35,812 bases of DNA from a virus (lineage: Duplodnaviria; Caudoviricetes). The stretch covers positions 1-35,812 of the IMG/VR virus record IMGVR_UViG_3300024181_000002; one strand, 5' to 3'. The notes beneath the pieces are model-generated. The model made no database searches and had not been told where the DNA came from. It saw only the letters and a list, made by a program, of their open reading frames with translations. Made by a program: the position numbers and the translations under genes. This document shows, in pieces, positions 3,528-35,812 of this stretch. The first letter of the stretch is position 1, and each line of letters opens with the position of its first letter.

Positions 3528-4931
3528 ATGGGATTTCTGAGCAAACCAAAACCGTCGAGTGCACAAGATACGGCGAATGCGCAGACCGGTTCGAATATCA
3601 ATACTGCGATTGCGAATGCAAACCTGAATCGTGTTGATCAATATTCGCCATTTGGGTCCAGTACCTATCAAGTTGTTGGCACTAATGCTGATGGAACACC
3701 AAAATATCAGCAAACGACTTCTCTTAATCCGCAGGTGCAAGGCATTCTTGACCAACAACTCAAGAATCAGCAGCAACAGCAAAACATCAGTGGCAATTTA
3801 CTTGGTAATGTTGCAAACCAGTATTCCAAACCTATTGATACATCAGGTGTAGGCAAATTGGATTATGGTGTATCTCCTGGTATGTCTGCTGCGCTTAATA
3901 CAGCTTATACGCATTCTGCTGGCCCTGCATCTCAGGCCGCAACCGGTAAGTATGTTACCAATGTCGGAAACGGCGGTGGAGATGTGCAACGAACTTTGGG
4001 TGATTGGAGCAATATTCCGGGTGTGATCCAGGGCGCACAGGACGCCGCCTATCAGAATCAGATGGCCTATCTGAATCCGCAATTCAAGAATCAGAGTAAT
4101 GATTTGCAGGCTCAACTTGCGGCTCAAGGTATCACGCAAGGATCAGCTGCCTATGATCGTGCGCAATCAGAACTTGCTCGTAATCAAACATTCTCGCAAC
4201 AGCAGGCACAGAATGCTGCCTTTGGTCAGGGATTGAACGCGGGGAATACGGCCTTCGGTATGAACCTACAATCTGGTCAATTTGCCAATCAGGCCCAGCA
4301 ACAAGGGTTTGATCAGGCATTGGCAAATGCTGGATTAGCCAATCATGCTGCTGATGCTCAGACGCAAATTAATCTGGCAAATATGGCAGCGCAAAATCAA
4401 CAAGGCATGTTTAATGCAAATCTGAATAATTCTGCATTGACTCAAAACTACAACAATCTGCTGAATCAAGCTGGTGTTAATAACGCTGCACATGCTCAGG
4501 GCATGCAAGATGTATATGCGCAATACAATCAGCCGCTACAGACCTATAATGCTTTGCAATCTGGAGCGCAGCCGCAAATGCCATCATTTGGTAATGTACC
4601 TGGAGCAAATGTTGCTGGGACTGATATCGCAGGCATCAATAATCAGGCTTATCAAAATCAGGTTGGATATCATAATGGACTGATGGGTGATATCGGATCA
4701 CTTGTGCAAGCGGGGTCATATCTATTCTCTGACAAACGTCTGAAGGAGAATATTGATAAAGTAGGTAAAACACCAGGCGGCAACAATGTCTATGAATATA
4801 ATTACAAAGGTGATCCAGACAAGCAACGAATGCGTGGTGTGATGGCACAGGAATTGATGAAGAAACAGCCGGATGCAGTAGCAAAAACTCCATCTGGTTA
4901 CATGGCAGTTGATTATTCGAAGGTGGCCTAA
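3528..4931 (+). CDS. DNA ejection/pilot protein with C-terminal peptidase S74-like domain
   Basis: Q/N/A/G-rich; C-terminal SDKRLKENI...GVMAQE...VDY signature. Confidence 0.75.
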   Translation: MGFLSKPKPSSAQDTANAQTGSNINTAIANANLNRVDQYSPFGSSTYQVVGTNADGTPKYQQTTSLNPQVQGILDQQLKNQQQQQNISGNLLGNVANQYSKPIDTSGVGKLDYGVSPGMSAALNTAYTHSAGPASQAATGKYVTNVGNGGGDVQRTLGDWSNIPGVIQGAQDAAYQNQMAYLNPQFKNQSNDLQAQLAAQGITQGSAAYDRAQSELARNQTFSQQQAQNAAFGQGLNAGNTAFGMNLQSGQFANQAQQQGFDQALANAGLANHAADAQTQINLANMAAQNQQGMFNANLNNSALTQNYNNLLNQAGVNNAAHAQGMQDVYAQYNQPLQTYNALQSGAQPQMPSFGNVPGANVAGTDIAGINNQAYQNQVGYHNGLMGDIGSLVQAGSYLFSDKRLKENIDKVGKTPGGNNVYEYNYKGDPDKQRMRGVMAQELMKKQPDAVAKTPSGYMAVDYSKVA

Positions 4932-6611
4932 ATGGCAGCACAAGATAATAGCTTCCTCGGGCGTCTTGATCCGAACCTAAATGCTCAGCTTGCTAATGCT
5001 GAGCAACAGTTAGCGCTTGCCCAGGCGCTTCAGGCTAAAGCATATGGAGGAGTAACGCCAGTACAGGCTAATGCTCCAATTGGCCTTGGTTCGATCATTG
5101 GGAATGCATTACTCGCTTATAAGACCCCGCAGCGTATGCAAGAAGCAAACGCGCAGATTGGTGATATCCAATCCAAGATTGGCCAACAAAGGCTGAATCT
5201 AATGGCGCAGATGCTCGGCGGTGGCGGAGAGCAGCAAACAGGTTCTCCCATGCTAGCACAGGGCGGTGCAGCACCCGCACAGGGCGATGCAAATTCAATG
5301 GCAGCAACTGGTGGCGGTGGTCAGCAACGGCCTCCGCCTGGAATCGGGCAAATGGTTCCTGATGTACGCCAAGATCCTGTATGGCGCAATTATGCAATGG
5401 GCGAGCAACTTGGTTTGCTTCCTCAGGGAACCGCTGACAAATATGCTGCCGCTCGATATAAAGCGGCTGAGCCAACTGATCAGATGAAAAATGACATTTT
5501 CTCTGGTGTATCGCCCGCTGCACGCAACGCCATTACCACAAGTGCATCACTTTCGCCAAATCAGTCGAATATTCGTTATGACGCACAAGGTAATCCTCAA
5601 CTTGCAATGGTTGGGGCTGATCCATCGAATAATCTGCAATATGGCGTTCAAAATGGTGTTGTCGGAGCCGCTCCTGTAGGTGGGGTTGCAGGTGCTCGTG
5701 CACAACTTGCAGGCGCTGAGAATGCTGCTCGTTCGGGAACGAATATCACGCAGGTAACTGGCCCGAATGGCGAGCAGGTCCCTGTATGGGCTGGCCCTGC
5801 TGCTACTGCTGGAACTCAACAGCTTGGATTGAACCCTGGTGAAGTACCTCCTTATACTGGTGGTCAACTTCCGCAGGCTCGCCTACAACAAATCCAGCAG
5901 GCAGCGAATGCAGGTAATCAACAAGCCCAAATGTTGCTGCAATCATATAATTCGGCACGCCCGCAACTTGGCCAGACTCAGACTAATAAGTTGATGACTG
6001 ATCAAGGTAATCAGCTTTATACGCAGATCAATTCTGAGAACACGAATAACGCGCAGCATCGCCAGATTCTTAATGAGATGTGGCATTTGGCGCAGGCTGG
6101 TCAGTTCGGTCCTGGCTCTGGTGGTATTGCTCGCCTCAAGGCATTGGCATCAAACGCTGGCATCGATATGACTGGCGCACAGTCAGATCAGGATGTCATG
6201 AAGAAGCTTTCCGCCAATATGGTCATGTCGCAACTTGGAAAGGGCGGAACCGGTACTGATGCGCAGCAAGCTAACATTCAGGCTGCATTCCCTAACGGCG
6301 AAATGACCAATGCAGGTATGCAAAAAGTTATTCCGATGTTGGTCAGCCAGATTGATGCACGCGAAGCACGAGGAAAAGCAGCAAATAATTTCCTGCAAAA
6401 TGGGGGGCAGCTTTCTGATCTTCAGGGCTTCCTGAGCAAATTCAATAATGCTGCCGATCCTGGGACTGTTAGCCTTGGACGTCGTCTGGCGGAAGCTAGC
6501 CAAAATGGAAATGTTCAACAAGTAGTACAGCAGATTAAGCAACAGAATCCTAGCTCATGGCAAAAAATCCTTAATAACGTGCAGAAACTCGATCAAATGG
6601 GAGCATTCTGA
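4932..6611 (+). CDS. Internal virion / DNA ejection protein
   Basis: 559 aa, Q/G/A-rich and helical; in podovirus ejection-gene position. Confidence 0.7.
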   Translation: MAAQDNSFLGRLDPNLNAQLANAEQQLALAQALQAKAYGGVTPVQANAPIGLGSIIGNALLAYKTPQRMQEANAQIGDIQSKIGQQRLNLMAQMLGGGGEQQTGSPMLAQGGAAPAQGDANSMAATGGGGQQRPPPGIGQMVPDVRQDPVWRNYAMGEQLGLLPQGTADKYAAARYKAAEPTDQMKNDIFSGVSPAARNAITTSASLSPNQSNIRYDAQGNPQLAMVGADPSNNLQYGVQNGVVGAAPVGGVAGARAQLAGAENAARSGTNITQVTGPNGEQVPVWAGPAATAGTQQLGLNPGEVPPYTGGQLPQARLQQIQQAANAGNQQAQMLLQSYNSARPQLGQTQTNKLMTDQGNQLYTQINSENTNNAQHRQILNEMWHLAQAGQFGPGSGGIARLKALASNAGIDMTGAQSDQDVMKKLSANMVMSQLGKGGTGTDAQQANIQAAFPNGEMTNAGMQKVIPMLVSQIDAREARGKAANNFLQNGGQLSDLQGFLSKFNNAADPGTVSLGRRLAEASQNGNVQQVVQQIKQQNPSSWQKILNNVQKLDQMGAF

Positions 6612-9569: not shown

Positions 9570-9928
9570 GCAAACTTCTTATAATTGATAAAATATCTGG
9601 TCGTCAATTAATCGAAATTGAAGAAGGTGGATCGTATTTTGATCCGACATTTGTTCTGTGGGATGAATCAATTGATGGTGAAATACCATCTATAGATATC
9701 ACTGGTGCGGTTCGTATTGATGGTGATCTGCTATTTAATGAAGAAGTAGCAGCAGAAGATGTAAAATTGAAATCAAAAATGGCTATTGCACAGTCAAATG
9801 CTGCAATCATCGCAGAACTGGAAAAAAATGATGCTAAGAGTATTCGTGCACTTCTTGAGGGCGATCAGGCCCGTATCGAAGAATGGAAACAAAAACAAGC
9901 TGCATTGCGGCTACAACTCGTTAAATGA
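9566..9928 (+). CDS. Tail fibre assembly/chaperone-like protein
   Basis: ATGA overlap with fibre; C-terminal L...D.KSIRAL.E...LR motif. Confidence 0.55.
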   Translation: MSKLLIIDKISGRQLIEIEEGGSYFDPTFVLWDESIDGEIPSIDITGAVRIDGDLLFNEEVAAEDVKLKSKMAIAQSNAAIIAELEKNDAKSIRALLEGDQARIEEWKQKQAALRLQLVK

Positions 9929-9939
9929 AAGGAAGAAGA

Positions 9940-10047
9940 ATGAATAAGATCAATATGGCTACAGGTGGTGGTGGTCAACAACGGCCACCAGATGAAAAAA
10001 CCTCATCTGTCCCGGTAAAAACTCAAACTCCTAAAAAAACCAAATGA
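9940..10047 (+). CDS. 35-aa peptide MNKINMATGGGGQQRPPDEKTSSVPVKTQTPKKTK
   Basis: AAGGAAG RBS; fills gap between genes; ATGA-coupled to 10044; shares 11 aa with ejection protein 4932..6611. Confidence 0.75.
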   Translation: MNKINMATGGGGQQRPPDEKTSSVPVKTQTPKKTK

Positions 10048-10439
10048 ACGGTTGGCGCTCGCGTTTATTGCTTATTGCCGTCTTTTTTATTGCGGCAAAG
10101 ATTCATGATTGGGTCATGCTAGGGTGTGCTAATACACCTCAGATGATGGCTATCTATCATGGAAGCGCGGGTGCTGTAGATTTGCTTCTGTTGTATGTCG
10201 CTCAGCATCACATCAGCGGAAGATTGTGCGATCACATACAGGCCACATGCATTGCCTCAGTGATCATTAATTTCGTAGGTTATCGCCTATACATGGCCTA
10301 TTCCCCGCCAGATTTTTACAACTATCTGATTGCGGGATTAAGCTATGTGCAATATCTACGATTACTTTATGTGGGCCGCCACGATGCTGACTATTACGAG
10401 CACGCTGTGGTTCCTGGCGCTCCTAGTGTCAGGGCTTAG
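10044..10439 (+). CDS. Small multi-pass (about 4 TM) membrane protein, function unknown
   Basis: Four hydrophobic segments in 131 aa; directly upstream of lysis genes. Confidence 0.75.
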   Translation: MNGWRSRLLLIAVFFIAAKIHDWVMLGCANTPQMMAIYHGSAGAVDLLLLYVAQHHISGRLCDHIQATCIASVIINFVGYRLYMAYSPPDFYNYLIAGLSYVQYLRLLYVGRHDADYYEHAVVPGAPSVRA

Positions 10440-10462
10440 GCTAATCATTAAGCGAAAACGAA

Positions 10463-10708
10463 ATGAACGATCAAATCGACAACGCAAAAGAAGCCATTTT
10501 CACGGCGGCTAGTAATCCGAAAGTTGCTACATTTGTTGCCGCTGGTGCTGGTGCAACCGGCGTAGCTTCAAGGATGGAGATCATTACCGGCTGGATGGGA
10601 TTTATCTCTGTGACATTAGGTATGTGTACTGCTGCTGTTGTATTGACGATTCAGATTATCAAACTTGTCAGGGAATGGCGCAGCTATCGGCAGGAGGATG
10701 AAGCATGA
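10463..10708 (+). CDS. Putative holin
   Basis: 81 aa, 1-2 TM segments, charged C-terminus, upstream of endolysin. Confidence 0.6.
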   Translation: MNDQIDNAKEAIFTAASNPKVATFVAAGAGATGVASRMEIITGWMGFISVTLGMCTAAVVLTIQIIKLVREWRSYRQEDEA

Positions 10709-10797
10709 AATTCATTCTTAAAAAGCTCCGAAAGCTTGCAGAAGATCATCCAGAGTTATTCATTTGGATTAACCTTTTCATAAATTACAAGGTTTAA
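10705..10797 (+). CDS. 30-aa amphipathic peptide MKFILKKLRKLAEDHPELFIWINLFINYKV
   Basis: GGAGG RBS at 10693; ATGA overlap with holin; fills the gap to the endolysin. Confidence 0.55.
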   Translation: MKFILKKLRKLAEDHPELFIWINLFINYKV

Positions 10798-10799
10798 TC

Positions 10800-11216
10800 A
10801 TGAATCGTGAAAAACTGATTGCCCATCTCGTCCAAGAGGAAGGTAAGGTAAATAAGCCTTATCGCGATACTGTCGGCAAATGGACAGCAGGTGTTGGCCG
10901 GAATCTAGACGATGTCGGGCTATCTGATGATGAGATCATGTACCTACTAGGCAATGATATCAATCGAGTAGAGAAACAGTTAGACACTAATCTGACATGG
11001 TGGCGCGGCATGTGCGATGCAAGGCAAAATGCTCTTGCTTCCATGTGTTTTCAGTTAGGTATTTCTGGTCTTTTGGCATTTAAAAATTCATTGCAATTGC
11101 TTCGCAATGGGCAATATTCTGCCGCAGCCGATGAATTCTTAAATAGCAAATGGGCTAGCCAAGTACCAGCCAGGGCAAAACGTGTTACCGATATGATTCG
11201 AACAGGAGAATACTAA
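10800..11216 (+). CDS. Endolysin, T4-like lysozyme (GH24)
   Basis: EEG...PYRDTVGKWTAGVGRNL catalytic E/D/T motif; MCFQLG; SKWASQVPARA. Confidence 0.92.
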   Translation: MNREKLIAHLVQEEGKVNKPYRDTVGKWTAGVGRNLDDVGLSDDEIMYLLGNDINRVEKQLDTNLTWWRGMCDARQNALASMCFQLGISGLLAFKNSLQLLRNGQYSAAADEFLNSKWASQVPARAKRVTDMIRTGEY

Positions 11217-11644
11217 TGACTGCTGCTGACCCAATTACTGCGGTTCTCAATATCGGAAGTACGCTCATCGAGCGATTGTTCCCAGATCCTGCTCAAAAAG
11301 CTCAGGCAAGCATGGAGTTGCTAAAACTTCAGCAATCAGGCGAACTTGCTCAGATGACTGCGGATACGCAACTAGCAACCGCACAGACTGATATCAATAA
11401 GGTTGAAGCTCAGAGCGCGTCCTTGTTCGTTTCAGGTTGGCGTCCATGTCTTGGATGGGTATGTAGCTTATCCTTCGGGTTTAAGTTCATTGGCGGCCCA
11501 TTGCTTGTTATGATTGCCTCATATTTTGGACATACAGTGCAGCTTCCACAGTTTGACTATTCAGAAATGTCTACCATTCTCATGGGCATTCTTGGTTTAG
11601 GTACTATGCGGACATTCGAAAAGATCCGAGGCGCATCCAAATAG
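11216..11644 (+). CDS. Holin of 3TMs (GTA-type) family protein
   Basis: FVSGWRP..GWVC and LGLG.MRTFEK signatures. Confidence 0.85.
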   Translation: MTAADPITAVLNIGSTLIERLFPDPAQKAQASMELLKLQQSGELAQMTADTQLATAQTDINKVEAQSASLFVSGWRPCLGWVCSLSFGFKFIGGPLLVMIASYFGHTVQLPQFDYSEMSTILMGILGLGTMRTFEKIRGASK

Positions 11645-11678
11645 AAAAAGCCCGCATCAATAGCGGGCTTTCTCTTTT
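11645..11678. terminator. Bidirectional intrinsic terminator between convergent arms
   Basis: AAAAAGCCCGC-atcaata-GCGGGCTTTCTCTTTT. Confidence 0.85.
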
Positions 11679-11689
11679 GCTCTTAGCGA

Positions 11690-12154
11690 TTAAGGATTGG
11701 AAATCGCTACGATACCCTGTTTGATCACACAGTTATCGTTGATGTTATCTACAGCCTGGATAGAACCCACTTGATAGGTAAGTTGCGAGAATGGGCTATT
11801 GCAACGTACCTCTACTGGAGCCTGAGCGCCAACATATTCATTGGTTGAACTAATTTGCAGGAACAGGCCGGTGCTGGTAGCCATGGTCACGAATTTACCC
11901 CAGATCAGACCAGACGAGTTGTCAACATATGCTCGGGTAGTGAACACAGTGGTGCCGGTATTATCAACAGTGGCTTTGGTCACTTGTAGGCCATTGGTGA
12001 CTTTCTTCACGCGGGTAGCGCCTTCAACGGTGAAATTAGTACCAGCAGTATCGGTGAAGTTTTGCGACAAAGTGGCAGCATGAGAGCCACCACAGGCCAG
12101 CAGGCCAAGAGCCATCAGACATGCAGACAGAGCTACAATAATTGCTTTTTTCAT
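11690..12154 (-). CDS. Exported lipoprotein (moron / exclusion candidate)
   Basis: AAGGAG RBS; MKK plus hydrophobic signal and lipobox LLAC; beta-rich mature part with Cys pair. Confidence 0.7.
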   Translation of the reverse strand: MKKAIIVALSACLMALGLLACGGSHAATLSQNFTDTAGTNFTVEGATRVKKVTNGLQVTKATVDNTGTTVFTTRAYVDNSSGLIWGKFVTMATSTGLFLQISSTNEYVGAQAPVEVRCNSPFSQLTYQVGSIQAVDNINDNCVIKQGIVAISNP

Positions 12155-15437: not shown

Positions 15438-16190
15438 TTAGGCTGCAAATAGCGATTCCTGGATCGGGGCAATCTTGCGGTCCCAGAAGGTTGGCGACTG
15501 CTGCGACTCGATGCGCTCGCGCAGCACCTGGGCGCGCGCTGCTTTGTTGGCTGGCAGGTACGTGCCCTTCCATTTCATGTCGATACCAATGTTGCGCGCC
15601 ACATTGGTGCTGTCCGCAGAAGCGAAGGGAAAGCGGGTGTACACTTCTGGGTCCAGCATCCGCAGCCCATGCAGCTTGCACACCGGGCGCCCATCGCGGT
15701 CGCACACCACGTCCATTGCCTCGGCCATGCGGTTCCACCAGGCAGATGTGCCGATGGTGGCGAAGTCTCCGGAACTGCCCAGGCAGATGCGCGGCCAAGT
15801 CAATGCGAGGCGCTCCAGCCGTTCCAGACTTTCATGCAGGTGCCAAACCGGCGCTCCGACATGCGGCGCAGTCTTTCGCCAGGGCCATTGCTCGAGTAAT
15901 GCATCATTGGCTGCCTCATCGCCATCGATAACATCCGGGATTACGGCGAAATCGAACTGTGGATAGCGATGCAGTTCAGCAATCAGTTCGTAAAAAGGCT
16001 CCCAATCAGTGATGGGATTACCTGATGTCCACGCCGAGAAACCGCCATTATCAATGGCCATCGTGGCGCAGACGTCTAGGATCAGCGCGAGCTGGTCAAG
16101 TCTTGCGAACGACGGGAAACAATGTGCATTGGTGTAAAGGCGAACGGCTGCCGTTTCCGGCGTTGCCGGGCCACCATGGTAGTGTTTCAT
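15438..16190 (-). CDS. TGT/DpdA-like transglycosylase-fold protein
   Basis: DNGGFSAW (DSG-like), PDVI, PVWH, LGSSG, LHGL, SADST motifs in TGT-barrel order. Confidence 0.6.
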   Translation of the reverse strand: MKHYHGGPATPETAAVRLYTNAHCFPSFARLDQLALILDVCATMAIDNGGFSAWTSGNPITDWEPFYELIAELHRYPQFDFAVIPDVIDGDEAANDALLEQWPWRKTAPHVGAPVWHLHESLERLERLALTWPRICLGSSGDFATIGTSAWWNRMAEAMDVVCDRDGRPVCKLHGLRMLDPEVYTRFPFASADSTNVARNIGIDMKWKGTYLPANKAARAQVLRERIESQQSPTFWDRKIAPIQESLFAA

Positions 16191-16435
16191 GCTTCACCTC
16201 GCACCGTCTCGATATCCACGCCATGGTGATGCGCGGTCAGCGTCTGCTTGCCGCCAAAACGGGCAAACAACTGGTCGGCAATCTGCTCGTGGAAACCTTC
16301 CTTGATCAGCGCCGTCGCCGTGGTGATGTGCTCCACCTGGATCATACGTCCGTCCGTCTCGATGCGCAGGCTGTAAATAATCTGCTCGCCATTGTTTGGG
16401 CATGCAGCCGCGAATTTTCGCGCGTAGACGTTCAT
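16187..16435 (-). CDS. QueF-like T-fold small protein
   Basis: N-terminal CP, IQVE and FHEQIA motif similar to QueF FHEQ; coupled to the TGT-like gene. Confidence 0.55.
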   Translation of the reverse strand: MNVYARKFAAACPNNGEQIIYSLRIETDGRMIQVEHITTATALIKEGFHEQIADQLFARFGGKQTLTAHHHGVDIETVRGEA

Positions 16436-21018: not shown

Positions 21019-21470
21019 TGCAAGGCCAATTCCCCAAGCGCGTATTCTTCCTCCGTGAAGAGCGTAACCGCGACACTCTGCTAGGGCTTATCAGGAATTT
21101 GCCGTTGGATCAGGATAAGCCTATGCAGGTGACGGTCGAGCCTTATAAGCGGCCACGTAAGCTAGACCAAAATGCCCTTTATCACGCGGGGCCGCTGAAG
21201 GATATCGCTGAACAGCTATTCATTGAAGGACGCCAGTATAGTGCGGAAGTCTTACACCGATATCTGAAAGAACAGTTCCTCCCTGAAGAGTACATTGAGG
21301 ATGAGTGCTTGGCAGGTTATCGGAAGTGGGATTACGACCCATCAGGAAATCGTGTTTTGGTTGGTAGCACGACCCAATTGACCGTGCGCGGATTCAGTAT
21401 TTTCCTTGAGCAGGTTCATGCATTCGGGGCCAATATGGGCGTTGAATTTCACACACGCGAGGAACGATGA
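21015..21470 (+). CDS. ninB: NinB-family recombination protein
   Basis: R.LDQNALYH...DIA.Q and STTQLTV..FS.FLE.V.AFGA..GV.F signatures. Confidence 0.8.
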   Translation: MMQGQFPKRVFFLREERNRDTLLGLIRNLPLDQDKPMQVTVEPYKRPRKLDQNALYHAGPLKDIAEQLFIEGRQYSAEVLHRYLKEQFLPEEYIEDECLAGYRKWDYDPSGNRVLVGSTTQLTVRGFSIFLEQVHAFGANMGVEFHTREER

Positions 21471-22234
21471 ATGACATGGCTATTCAGCAAAGCATTAATG
21501 GAGGATTACGAGAACTCGCGCTGTTCGCAGGCGCTGGCGGAGGAATATTGGGAGGCCACTTGCTCGGCTGGCGAACCGTATGCGCAGTTGAACGTGATGC
21601 CTACGCCGCACAAGTTCTGGCGCAACGACAAAACGATGGAATTCTCAGACCTTTCCCGATTTGGTCTGACGTTACGACTTTTGACGGAAGGCCATGGAGA
21701 GGCTGTATTGATGTGGTTTCAGCAGGGTTTCCTTGCCAAGGTATTTCCGTTGCTGGAAGGGGCGAAGGACTTGACGATGAAAGATCAGGATTATGGAGAG
21801 AAGTCCCCCGCATCGTTCGCGAAACTGGCGCGAGATTTGTCTGGCTGGAAAACTCACCAGCTCTCACTTCTAGGGGGCTTGGAAGAGTTCTCGCAGACCT
21901 GGCCCAAATGGGGTTTGATGCTAAATGGGGAGTGCTGGGAGCTGGACACGTCGGCGCTTGGCATTTACGAGAACGAATCTGGATATTTGCTGCCGACAAT
22001 CGGGAAAAACGAATACAAAGGCAGTTCTGCAAAACGGTTCAAAGGCTCTCCGCACTTCCGGGGTGCAAAAATGGTGGAGGGATTGAGGACTTGTTCAACA
22101 GATCCGATTTGCCTGACCCCCTCATTCGCGGAAGTGGCAATGCTGTGGCCGATTACGTGGACAGAATTGCATGCATCGGTAACGGACAGGTTCCAGCAGT
22201 GGCAGCAACAGCATGGAGGATTCTTAGCCAATGA
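21467..22234 (+). CDS. C5 cytosine DNA methyltransferase, alpha chain (motifs I-VIII and X)
   Basis: LFAGAGG, GFPCQ, ENS, RERIWI, IGNGQVP. Confidence 0.92.
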   Translation: MNDMAIQQSINGGLRELALFAGAGGGILGGHLLGWRTVCAVERDAYAAQVLAQRQNDGILRPFPIWSDVTTFDGRPWRGCIDVVSAGFPCQGISVAGRGEGLDDERSGLWREVPRIVRETGARFVWLENSPALTSRGLGRVLADLAQMGFDAKWGVLGAGHVGAWHLRERIWIFAADNREKRIQRQFCKTVQRLSALPGCKNGGGIEDLFNRSDLPDPLIRGSGNAVADYVDRIACIGNGQVPAVAATAWRILSQ

Positions 22235-22244
22235 AACGAAATAA
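21471..22244 (+). CDS. Overlapping-frame MTase beta chain (motif IX)
   Basis: 257-codon +1 frame ORF nested over the MTase; ends with LTPSFAEVAMLWPITWT, motif IX-like. Confidence 0.65.
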   Translation: MTWLFSKALMEDYENSRCSQALAEEYWEATCSAGEPYAQLNVMPTPHKFWRNDKTMEFSDLSRFGLTLRLLTEGHGEAVLMWFQQGFLAKVFPLLEGAKDLTMKDQDYGEKSPASFAKLARDLSGWKTHQLSLLGGLEEFSQTWPKWGLMLNGECWELDTSALGIYENESGYLLPTIGKNEYKGSSAKRFKGSPHFRGAKMVEGLRTCSTDPICLTPSFAEVAMLWPITWTELHASVTDRFQQWQQQHGGFLANETK

Positions 22245-35685: not shown

Positions 35686-35812
35686 TACAGGAGAAATCTC
35701 ATGCAACTGCATCAAGCTCGTCCCCCATTCGTAGAATTTCATCAAATCGCTGTTGAGGATCGTCAGGCAACGATTGAAAGCGGTCGTCGCACTACTCGCG
35801 ATGTGAATATGG
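35686..35812. repeat. Terminal direct repeat, copy 2
   Basis: Identical to 1-127. Confidence 0.95.

Follow-up and report, generated by a model that had tools for sequence, protein, structure and literature searches.

Peptide communication is established for temperate Bacillus phages, where the arbitrium peptide is exported and then re-imported to a cytoplasmic TPR-type (RRNPP) receptor. The AimP-AimR-AimX genes of this system place a short peptide gene beside that of a presumed cognate receptor, with allelic 'words' (PMC13389391). In T4 lysis inhibition, a periplasmic cue from the superinfecting virion, probably its DNA, restrains the holin (PMC11413866; 10.1101/2025.11.12.688109); what triggers lysis inhibition in phages other than T4 is not known (10.1101/2025.11.12.688109). 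Lysis inhibition also arises from small membrane proteins unrelated to those of T4, as with the gp63 pinholin and gp62 holin of N4 (10.1101/2025.11.12.688109) and with TeaA and ArrA of ICP1 (PMC7182436). In the Seuratvirus CSP1, the gene group CSP1_020-022, which lies by the tail-fibre gene and off the holin, suppresses lysis via a single-helix antiholin (PMC13577005). The P22 inner-membrane protein SieA is functionally tied to the ejection proteins gp20 and gp16, of which gp20 probably forms a trans-periplasmic tube and tolerates module swaps (PMC10883804).

We analysed a 35,812-nucleotide stretch of DNA from a Caudoviricetes record (IMG/VR IMGVR_UViG_3300024181_000002; the window), in which positions 1-127 and 35686-35812 are the same 127 bases, which points to a circular assembly and thus to a complete genome of about 35.7 kb. 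Using a PHROG scan we detected terminase, portal and major head genes, a short-tail module and three ejection-slot genes, with no integrase among the 60 window ORFs scanned, and the best-matching public runs for the window are soil, rhizosphere and water metagenomes. No RNA run was among the matches listed for the region, a result that carries no weight as to expression. Beside its lysis genes the window carries four overlapping genes on the plus strand, here termed P, R, X and H, and from their arrangement across loci we consider P-R-X-H to be a conserved four-gene late cassette. A preliminary description of this DNA had drawn the unit as positions 9940..10439, which correctly took in P and R but omitted the overlapping X and the holin-like H.

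P (9940..10047) encodes a basic peptide of 35 residues with no signal sequence, which reads MNKINMATGGGGQQRPPDEKTSSVPVKTQTPKKTK. A ribosome-binding site, AAAGGA, recognised from its sequence, lies at 9928..9933, and the P stop codon overlaps the start of R as ATGA, as had been described. In all 43 distinct metagenomic R genes a P gene precedes R, with a -4 overlap in 42 of the 43 loci, and nearly all of the 43 homologous peptides have an AAGG/AGGA-type ribosome-binding site 5' of them; we regard P as a real, conserved and translationally coupled gene. Alignment of 40 homologues gave lengths of 28-36 residues and a net charge of +1 to +10 (median +7), with no hydrophobic stretch in any of them (highest 7-residue hydropathy 1.44). 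Across the peptides a core with the pattern (A/V)(T/G)G-x-GG(G)-(K/Q)-Q-R-P is conserved, while their Lys/Pro/Thr tails vary, and in the window this core is ATGGGGQQRPP (9958-9990), the commoner allele being TG[AT]GGGKQRP. Some peptides carry the core as a tandem repeat, with three units in PEi21 and two or three in the Erwinia and Klebsiella phages, which is what a ligand would be expected to show. PhiPLPE has the core twice with the repeats in different frames, which probably reflects a sequencing error or a frameshift. In the PhiPLPE locus (L071, 38143-38870), the annotated gp66/gp67 boundaries also misfit the family, the R start apparently lying near 38306 and X being unannotated.

The tight coupling of P to R could also mean that P is a cis-acting leader peptide, in which stalling at the Pro-rich core or at Lys codons sets the output of R-X-H and the second copy of the core, described below, is a captured fragment. 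The near-constant overlap, the strong ribosome-binding sites, the RP or RPP found in most cores and the Lys-rich ends would all suit such a leader. However, the cores of PEi21, KpV52 and the Vibrio phages have no PP, some cores are tandemly repeated, P and R do not overlap in KpV52 and PEi21, and a leader gives no reason for selection on a copy in a virion protein, so we consider this explanation improbable.

The second copy of ATGGGGQQRPP lies in 4932..6611 (plus strand), which encodes a 559-residue protein in the middle, P22 gp20-like slot between genes of PHROG 4287 and PHROG 26400, both 'DNA ejection protein' families. The protein itself has no PHROG or Pfam match, and a virion-transglycosylase-like domain is inserted in three of the 10 homologues scanned. 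We therefore call it a predicted ejection protein from its position and the features of its homologues, which sustain the name given to it in the preliminary description, although not through a family match. The distant homologues P0040, P0042 and L078:8759-10639 carry the insert; in L078 the motif is absent and no such cassette stands before the lysis genes. The first ejection-slot protein (3528-4931, plus strand) has a C-terminal Peptidase_S74 chaperone domain.

Comparison of the two DNA copies, at 9958-9990 and 5304-5336, showed that six of the 11 codons differ, each by one nucleotide at a silent third position (6 nt), so that our recount agrees with the one made before. The copied residues are the conserved core of the P family, and in the ejection protein they sit within a 14-residue block, AATGGGGQQRPPPG (5301..5342), in a hypervariable linker. 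Among window ORFs of at least 100 residues, the next best match to the peptide is 5 residues, and in 60,000 shuffles of the 559-residue protein (windows of 20, 40 and the whole protein) the longest shared string never exceeded 8 residues. Contigs from three of four other runs cover the motif in this gene with no listed difference. The block is identical at 14 of 14 residues to that of the P0033-type homologue (78% identical over the protein) despite six synonymous changes, whereas the preceding linker is identical at only 7 of 25 residues and 124 of 185 four-fold sites (67%) differ. In the motif-less sisters P0034/P0035 (458/564 identical, 81%), the same stretch matches at 5 of 14 positions. 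Because the block stays frozen while the linker and the four-fold sites diverge, we conclude that the copy is under purifying selection in its lineage, its conservation being measured in one pairwise comparison; selection on the peptide sequence, as proposed earlier, is thereby borne out.

An ejection copy without function, arising by chance or recombination in a Gly/Gln/Pro-rich linker while the cassette acts as a lysis accessory, would be in keeping with the low complexity of that linker, with the reliance on a single pair of sequences, with the motif being present in only two of 13 homologue clusters of 4932..6611 (that of the window and P0033) and with the 6 of 23 metagenome matches to a 10-residue pattern that fell in unrelated contexts. 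It is hard to reconcile with an analytical chance expectation of 4e-6 within the window genome even for the composition of this linker, with the frozen block described above, or with the ends of the match coinciding with the borders of the family core, and we give it little credence.

The narrow distribution of the copy also bears on how far it belongs to the system. An IMG/VR scan for the core returned 22 stretches on 21 contigs. One contig is a near-identical genome that has both copies, two of P0033 type have the ejection copy, and the other 18 have the peptide alone. Scanning with TG[AT]GGG[KQ]Q[RK]P gave 33 stretches, each with a single match and none of them within a long gene; 31 are peptides of the cassette type, one of which lies at a contig end where R is missing, and the other two are unrelated. 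Five of five whole records at least 90% complete matched the core of the window once, a sixth having another allele, and in a second record set 15 of 17 records matched, 14 once and one twice with the extra match out of frame, the remaining two having alleles missed by the pattern. No true second copy of the core was found in the 20 near-complete cassette genomes whose allele the patterns matched. Apparent second copies in two records (G021 and G022) were rejected as they are out of frame inside larger genes. Furthermore, a profile of 27 distinct cores reached a core-level score in five of 603 long ORFs. Of these, two are the ejection proteins, two had been retrieved by the motif itself, and one is a peptide ORF that reads on through a long open frame. 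The preliminary description had taken the ejection-protein link as a general part of the system and had named, as grounds for refuting it, relatives with the four-helix gene whose ejection proteins have no matching motif. For the family these scans show just that, with related phages keeping P and R without the second copy, and the link as a general feature is not supported. The copy being absent from 11 of the 13 homologue clusters and from every other cassette phage examined, virion delivery by the ejection protein is not general for the system.

Two look-alikes were set aside. The word MAGGGQQPQ in an unrelated ejection protein of L003, L006 and L016 was not counted, since it scores below 10 bits against 18.7-34.9 for cores and since L039, with a different peptide, has almost the same word; the sites of MAGGGQQPQ or MAGGGQPQQ in these cassette-bearing phages are L003:4785-6395, L006:4821-6431, L016 and L039. 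A 375-codon non-cassette ORF (L068:3941-5068) ends in TGGGGQQRPP within a Gly-rich tail, and we treated this as a chance match.

The P0033 lineage probably carries the cassette with the same core as the window, via a join at an assembly break, the end of L065 (P0033-type) being 127 bases identical to the start of L035 in the same assembly. L035 carries the cassette with this core, with an R only 66% identical to that of the window, and L003 has an R 95% identical to that of the window beside a different, motif-less ejection protein. These pairings indicate that cassette and ejection gene reassort and that the copy stays with the ejection gene. The peptide occurs widely and the ejection copy only locally, so the word most likely passed from the former to the latter, a direction that also argues against the earlier suggestion that the peptide is a decoy of the ejection protein.

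R (10044..10439, plus strand) encodes a candidate receptor of 131 residues. It matches PHROG 15451, of unknown function (E 3e-7), as do 88 of 95 homologues, and an R profile recovered 104 proteins from a 50%-cluster library at E 0.001 or better. An AlphaFold2 model shows four helices (mean pLDDT 82), in line with the roughly four transmembrane segments already proposed, and its low-confidence tail is explained by X, which overlaps R beyond residue ~112. Searches with Foldseek of PDB and BFVD gave no match to the model at E 0.001 or better, the top viral matches below that standard being unnamed or uncharacterised proteins; the R profile had no match among PDB sequences, a Pfam scan had none for R, and one completed scan of bacterial genomes found no relatives. 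A tblastn match to T4-like Aeromonas phages was rejected (E 0.4, on the strand opposite to the annotated genes). AgrB-like proteases, lasso peptides and double-glycine leaders were also considered and dropped, there being no family match, no retention of His21 and Cys69 in distant R homologues, and no maturation or transporter genes nearby.

Positive-inside bias predicts that R has both termini inside and loops 1 and 3 outside, with a mean K+R of 0.25 and 0.05 in these loops versus 2.1, 1.3 and 1.65 in the inner segments. Loop 1 is acidic. The predicted outer face holds the invariant or near-invariant residues H21, N30, H39, Y83, P89 and Y92, and the predicted inner face is also conserved (W4, R5, R7, G59, L61 and R106). 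This modelled topology fits a ligand-receptor reading of P and R. Core alleles track the R tree, which demonstrates linkage, not co-evolution. The sole core switch inside the clade of the window, to GTG[NS]GGGVPERP in L039/L042, is a single event and is accompanied in R by a 2-residue loop-1 insertion and the loss of N30 and H39.

The core could bind a host envelope protein instead of R, with free P and the ejection copy sharing a host-binding word that the latter would use during DNA entry. Cores resemble one another in phages of Klebsiella, Edwardsiella, Vibrio, Iodobacter and soil hosts, as they might if the host target is conserved, and the contact between P and R is itself only a prediction. 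None-the-less, we judge a host target unlikely: in collection scans the core is almost never found apart from R, the ejection copy is the exact allele of its own R clade and not the commoner one, and the one core switch accompanies changes in an outer loop of R.

X (10384..10512, plus strand) is a predicted 42-residue, single-helix membrane protein with a basic C-terminal tail, which lies in the +1 frame and overlaps the end of R and the start of H; its start codon is inferred, with alternative ATGs at 10345 and 10369. The +1 frame is open across the R stop in all 46 distinct loci, whereas the +2 frame is open in 2 of the 46 and the control stretches in 42 of 276; the hydropathy peak of the X frame reaches 1.6 in 36 of the 46. 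H (10463..10708, plus strand; PHROG 13707) has 81 residues, with a Gly/Ala-rich and a hydrophobic segment, and, where the sequence extends that far, comes after R in nearly all loci (27 of 28 in one set). PHROG holin matches are weak (E 8e-4 to 7e-3) and occur in three of nine homologues, the H of the window itself having no holin match; the nearest named Atlas clusters are class II holins (0.82-0.84), which is a lead only, and hhalign of the H profile with the S21-type EssD gave a probability of 1.2%. H does have the layout of a class II holin or pinholin, being small with two segments and a charged C-terminus, directly before the endolysin. We describe H as only weakly holin-like.

Downstream in the window are an endolysin (10800..11216; PF00959), a GTA-type holin with three transmembrane segments as a second holin outside the four-gene unit (11216..11644; PF11351), both on the plus strand, and a terminator-like hairpin (11647..11671, plus strand; from a consensus scan only) closing the virion/lysis gene run. 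In 28 of 36 loci R is followed, at a distance of no more than about 0.5 kb, by the start of an endolysin gene, and these endolysins belong to at least four unrelated families. In the remaining eight this slot holds a protein of 162-167 residues, and the four of these that were scanned all match PHROG 3108, of unknown function, making this protein a candidate for an unrecognised endolysin family. It lies just after H in L024, L042, L079, L083, L084, L094, L098 and L101. In the window a 30-residue ORF (10705-10797) lies between H and the endolysin, probably a small insertion; similar extra spacing is seen in L004/L005, and in L002 and L006 the endolysin comes straight after H without it.

The order P-R-X-H is common to podovirus-type contigs, KpV52, PEi21, PhiPLPE, two Vibrio phages and an Erwinia phage, and myoviruses also carry the cassette. 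One R homologue matched 87 phage records, of which 64 are Klebsiella phages, and cultured carriers include Jedunavirus, Edwardsiella, Vibrio and Iodobacter phages. Taken together these searches suggest a cassette present in many unrelated phages of Gram-negative bacteria and not described before: the literature searched, which left most subscription journals outside, held no description of it and no occurrence of the string GGGGQQRP, nor, with a 2026 review included, of the name 'LydCom'. Neither KpV52 nor PEi21 has an annotated holin; both have endolysin and spanin-like genes next to the cassette. The report on the cultured carrier KB2 records a relative with no holin gene (PMC10276810). KB2 itself is reported to have a 10-min latent period with lysis within 60 min, and the available text of that report mentions no lysis delay (PMC10276810). 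Many carriers, including the window, have a separate holin, and in PhiPLPE the cassette is ~32 kb from the annotated lysozyme and holin.

The cassette can now be set against the systems described above. With T/RI/RIII of T4 it would share the logic of a virion-delivered periplasmic cue holding back a holin. However, T4 uses a T holin with a periplasmic domain and a signal-peptide-bearing RI, while the cassette has a signal-less 35-residue P, a four-helix R and two small membrane proteins. H, at 81 residues, lacks the single transmembrane segment plus large periplasmic domain of a T-type holin, P has no hydrophobic stretch that might serve as the signal peptide or anchor of a periplasmic antiholin, R has four helices, and PHROG and Pfam scans found no match of the cassette proteins to T or RI. 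N4 has two holins, as the window may have, but the available parts of the reports on N4 (10.1101/2025.11.12.688109) and ICP1 (PMC7182436) describe no peptide ligand or receptor, and family scans found no homology of the cassette to the proteins of either. The arbitrium genes resemble it in having a peptide gene adjoining that of a presumed receptor and allelic words, but these belong to temperate Bacillus phages deciding between lysis and lysogeny, whereas the cassette occurs in phages of Gram-negative hosts with a membrane protein beside lysis genes. Moreover, P has no signal sequence of an exported propeptide, and R is a four-helix membrane protein with no Pfam or PDB match where arbitrium has a TPR-type (RRNPP) receptor. 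SieA is likewise an inner-membrane phage protein linked to ejection proteins, although it is encoded by one gene, expressed from the prophage, and has no partner peptide, and R is in a late operon, also in myoviruses; R has no Pfam match and no PADLOC match to SieA or to catalogued exclusion or defence proteins, only the unnamed PHROG. Both X and the PhiPLPE layout have a precedent in CSP1_020-022, but as described in the available portion of its report that gene group works without superinfection, involves a tail-fibre protein and includes no peptide (PMC13577005), and no CSP1 record is among the matches listed in phage searches with R homologues. We infer a new kind of cassette from these missing T4, arbitrium and SieA features together with the literature search, and its function from its anatomy.

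Our preferred reading, held tentatively and at somewhat under an even chance, is that P-R-X-H is a peptide-sensing lysis-timing switch and that in the lineage of the window the selected ejection copy would inject the same signal on superinfection. P, made late and with no export signal, would leave the cell by lysis, either free or borne on virions by its basic tail. The conserved outer loops of R would then bind the Gly-rich, Arg/Lys-bearing core, and liganded R, probably via X, would restrain H or the neighbouring holin and so delay lysis at high phage density; delay is the likeliest output since known superinfection-sensing systems delay lysis. As the middle ejection protein is expected to lie across the periplasm, the copy would signal at every secondary adsorption, and the recipients would be kin and the many co-occurring phages with the same core. 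The periplasmic-DNA cue of T4 and the spanning of the periplasm by P22 gp20 make a protein in the gp20 slot a plausible carrier. The lysis-timing role of R-X-H is read from the anatomy of the cassette, and we count in its favour the endolysin after R in most loci and the missing holin annotation of KpV52 and PEi21. Against it we count the weak holin character of H, the separate holins, the eight loci with no recognised endolysin after the cassette, the distance in PhiPLPE, the conservation of the inner face of R and the KB2 lysis data, and also that the model requires a 3.8-kDa P to cross the outer membrane. The wider proposition, a peptide-coded lysis inhibition in lytic Gram-negative phages in which a word read by R gates a holin and the virions of one lineage signal to or stall infected cells with the same word, is possible but on balance doubtful.

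Tight P-R coupling would also suit a toxin/antidote pair. On this reading R-X-H would serve as a membrane device for superinfection exclusion or abortive infection at a late stage, with P as the antidote, and the ejection copy would be a password that switches the device off when the cell already harbours a phage with the same core. A core common to many co-occurring phages means that such a password would pay. However, no PADLOC match was found for any of seven proteins, the cassette comes at the close of the virion genes, ahead of the endolysins, and not in a lysogeny region, the ORFs scanned include no integrase, and most carriers are without the password yet must infect the same populations; we rate exclusion as rather unlikely. 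One of the 22 records in one set was classed as a provirus.

Should the lysis-timing reading be true, a peptide-receptor-holin cassette would join peptide signalling with lysis inhibition and extend it to lytic Gram-negative phages. It may also hold the holin reported missing from one carrier genome, and its cultured carriers make it directly testable. The ejection copy is a natural experiment that marks the 11 residues likely to be active, and it points to a virion protein acquiring a signalling ligand.

Elsewhere in the window, a gene for a 154-residue protein with a signal-peptide-like start (11690-12154, minus strand) stands head-on to the lysis genes, and in L006 the same slot holds a different 138-residue protein of similar build, suggesting a slot for a variable exported moron. 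An Rfam scan gave only sub-threshold matches. A queuine tRNA-ribosyltransferase-like gene (PHROG 887; 15438-16435, minus strand) with an overlapping 82-residue neighbour suggests deazaguanine DNA modification. Finally, two ORFs of ~255 residues at 21467-22244 (plus strand) share nearly their whole length in different frames, each with matches to DNA methyltransferase PHROGs, an arrangement that we take to resemble two-frame split methyltransferases.
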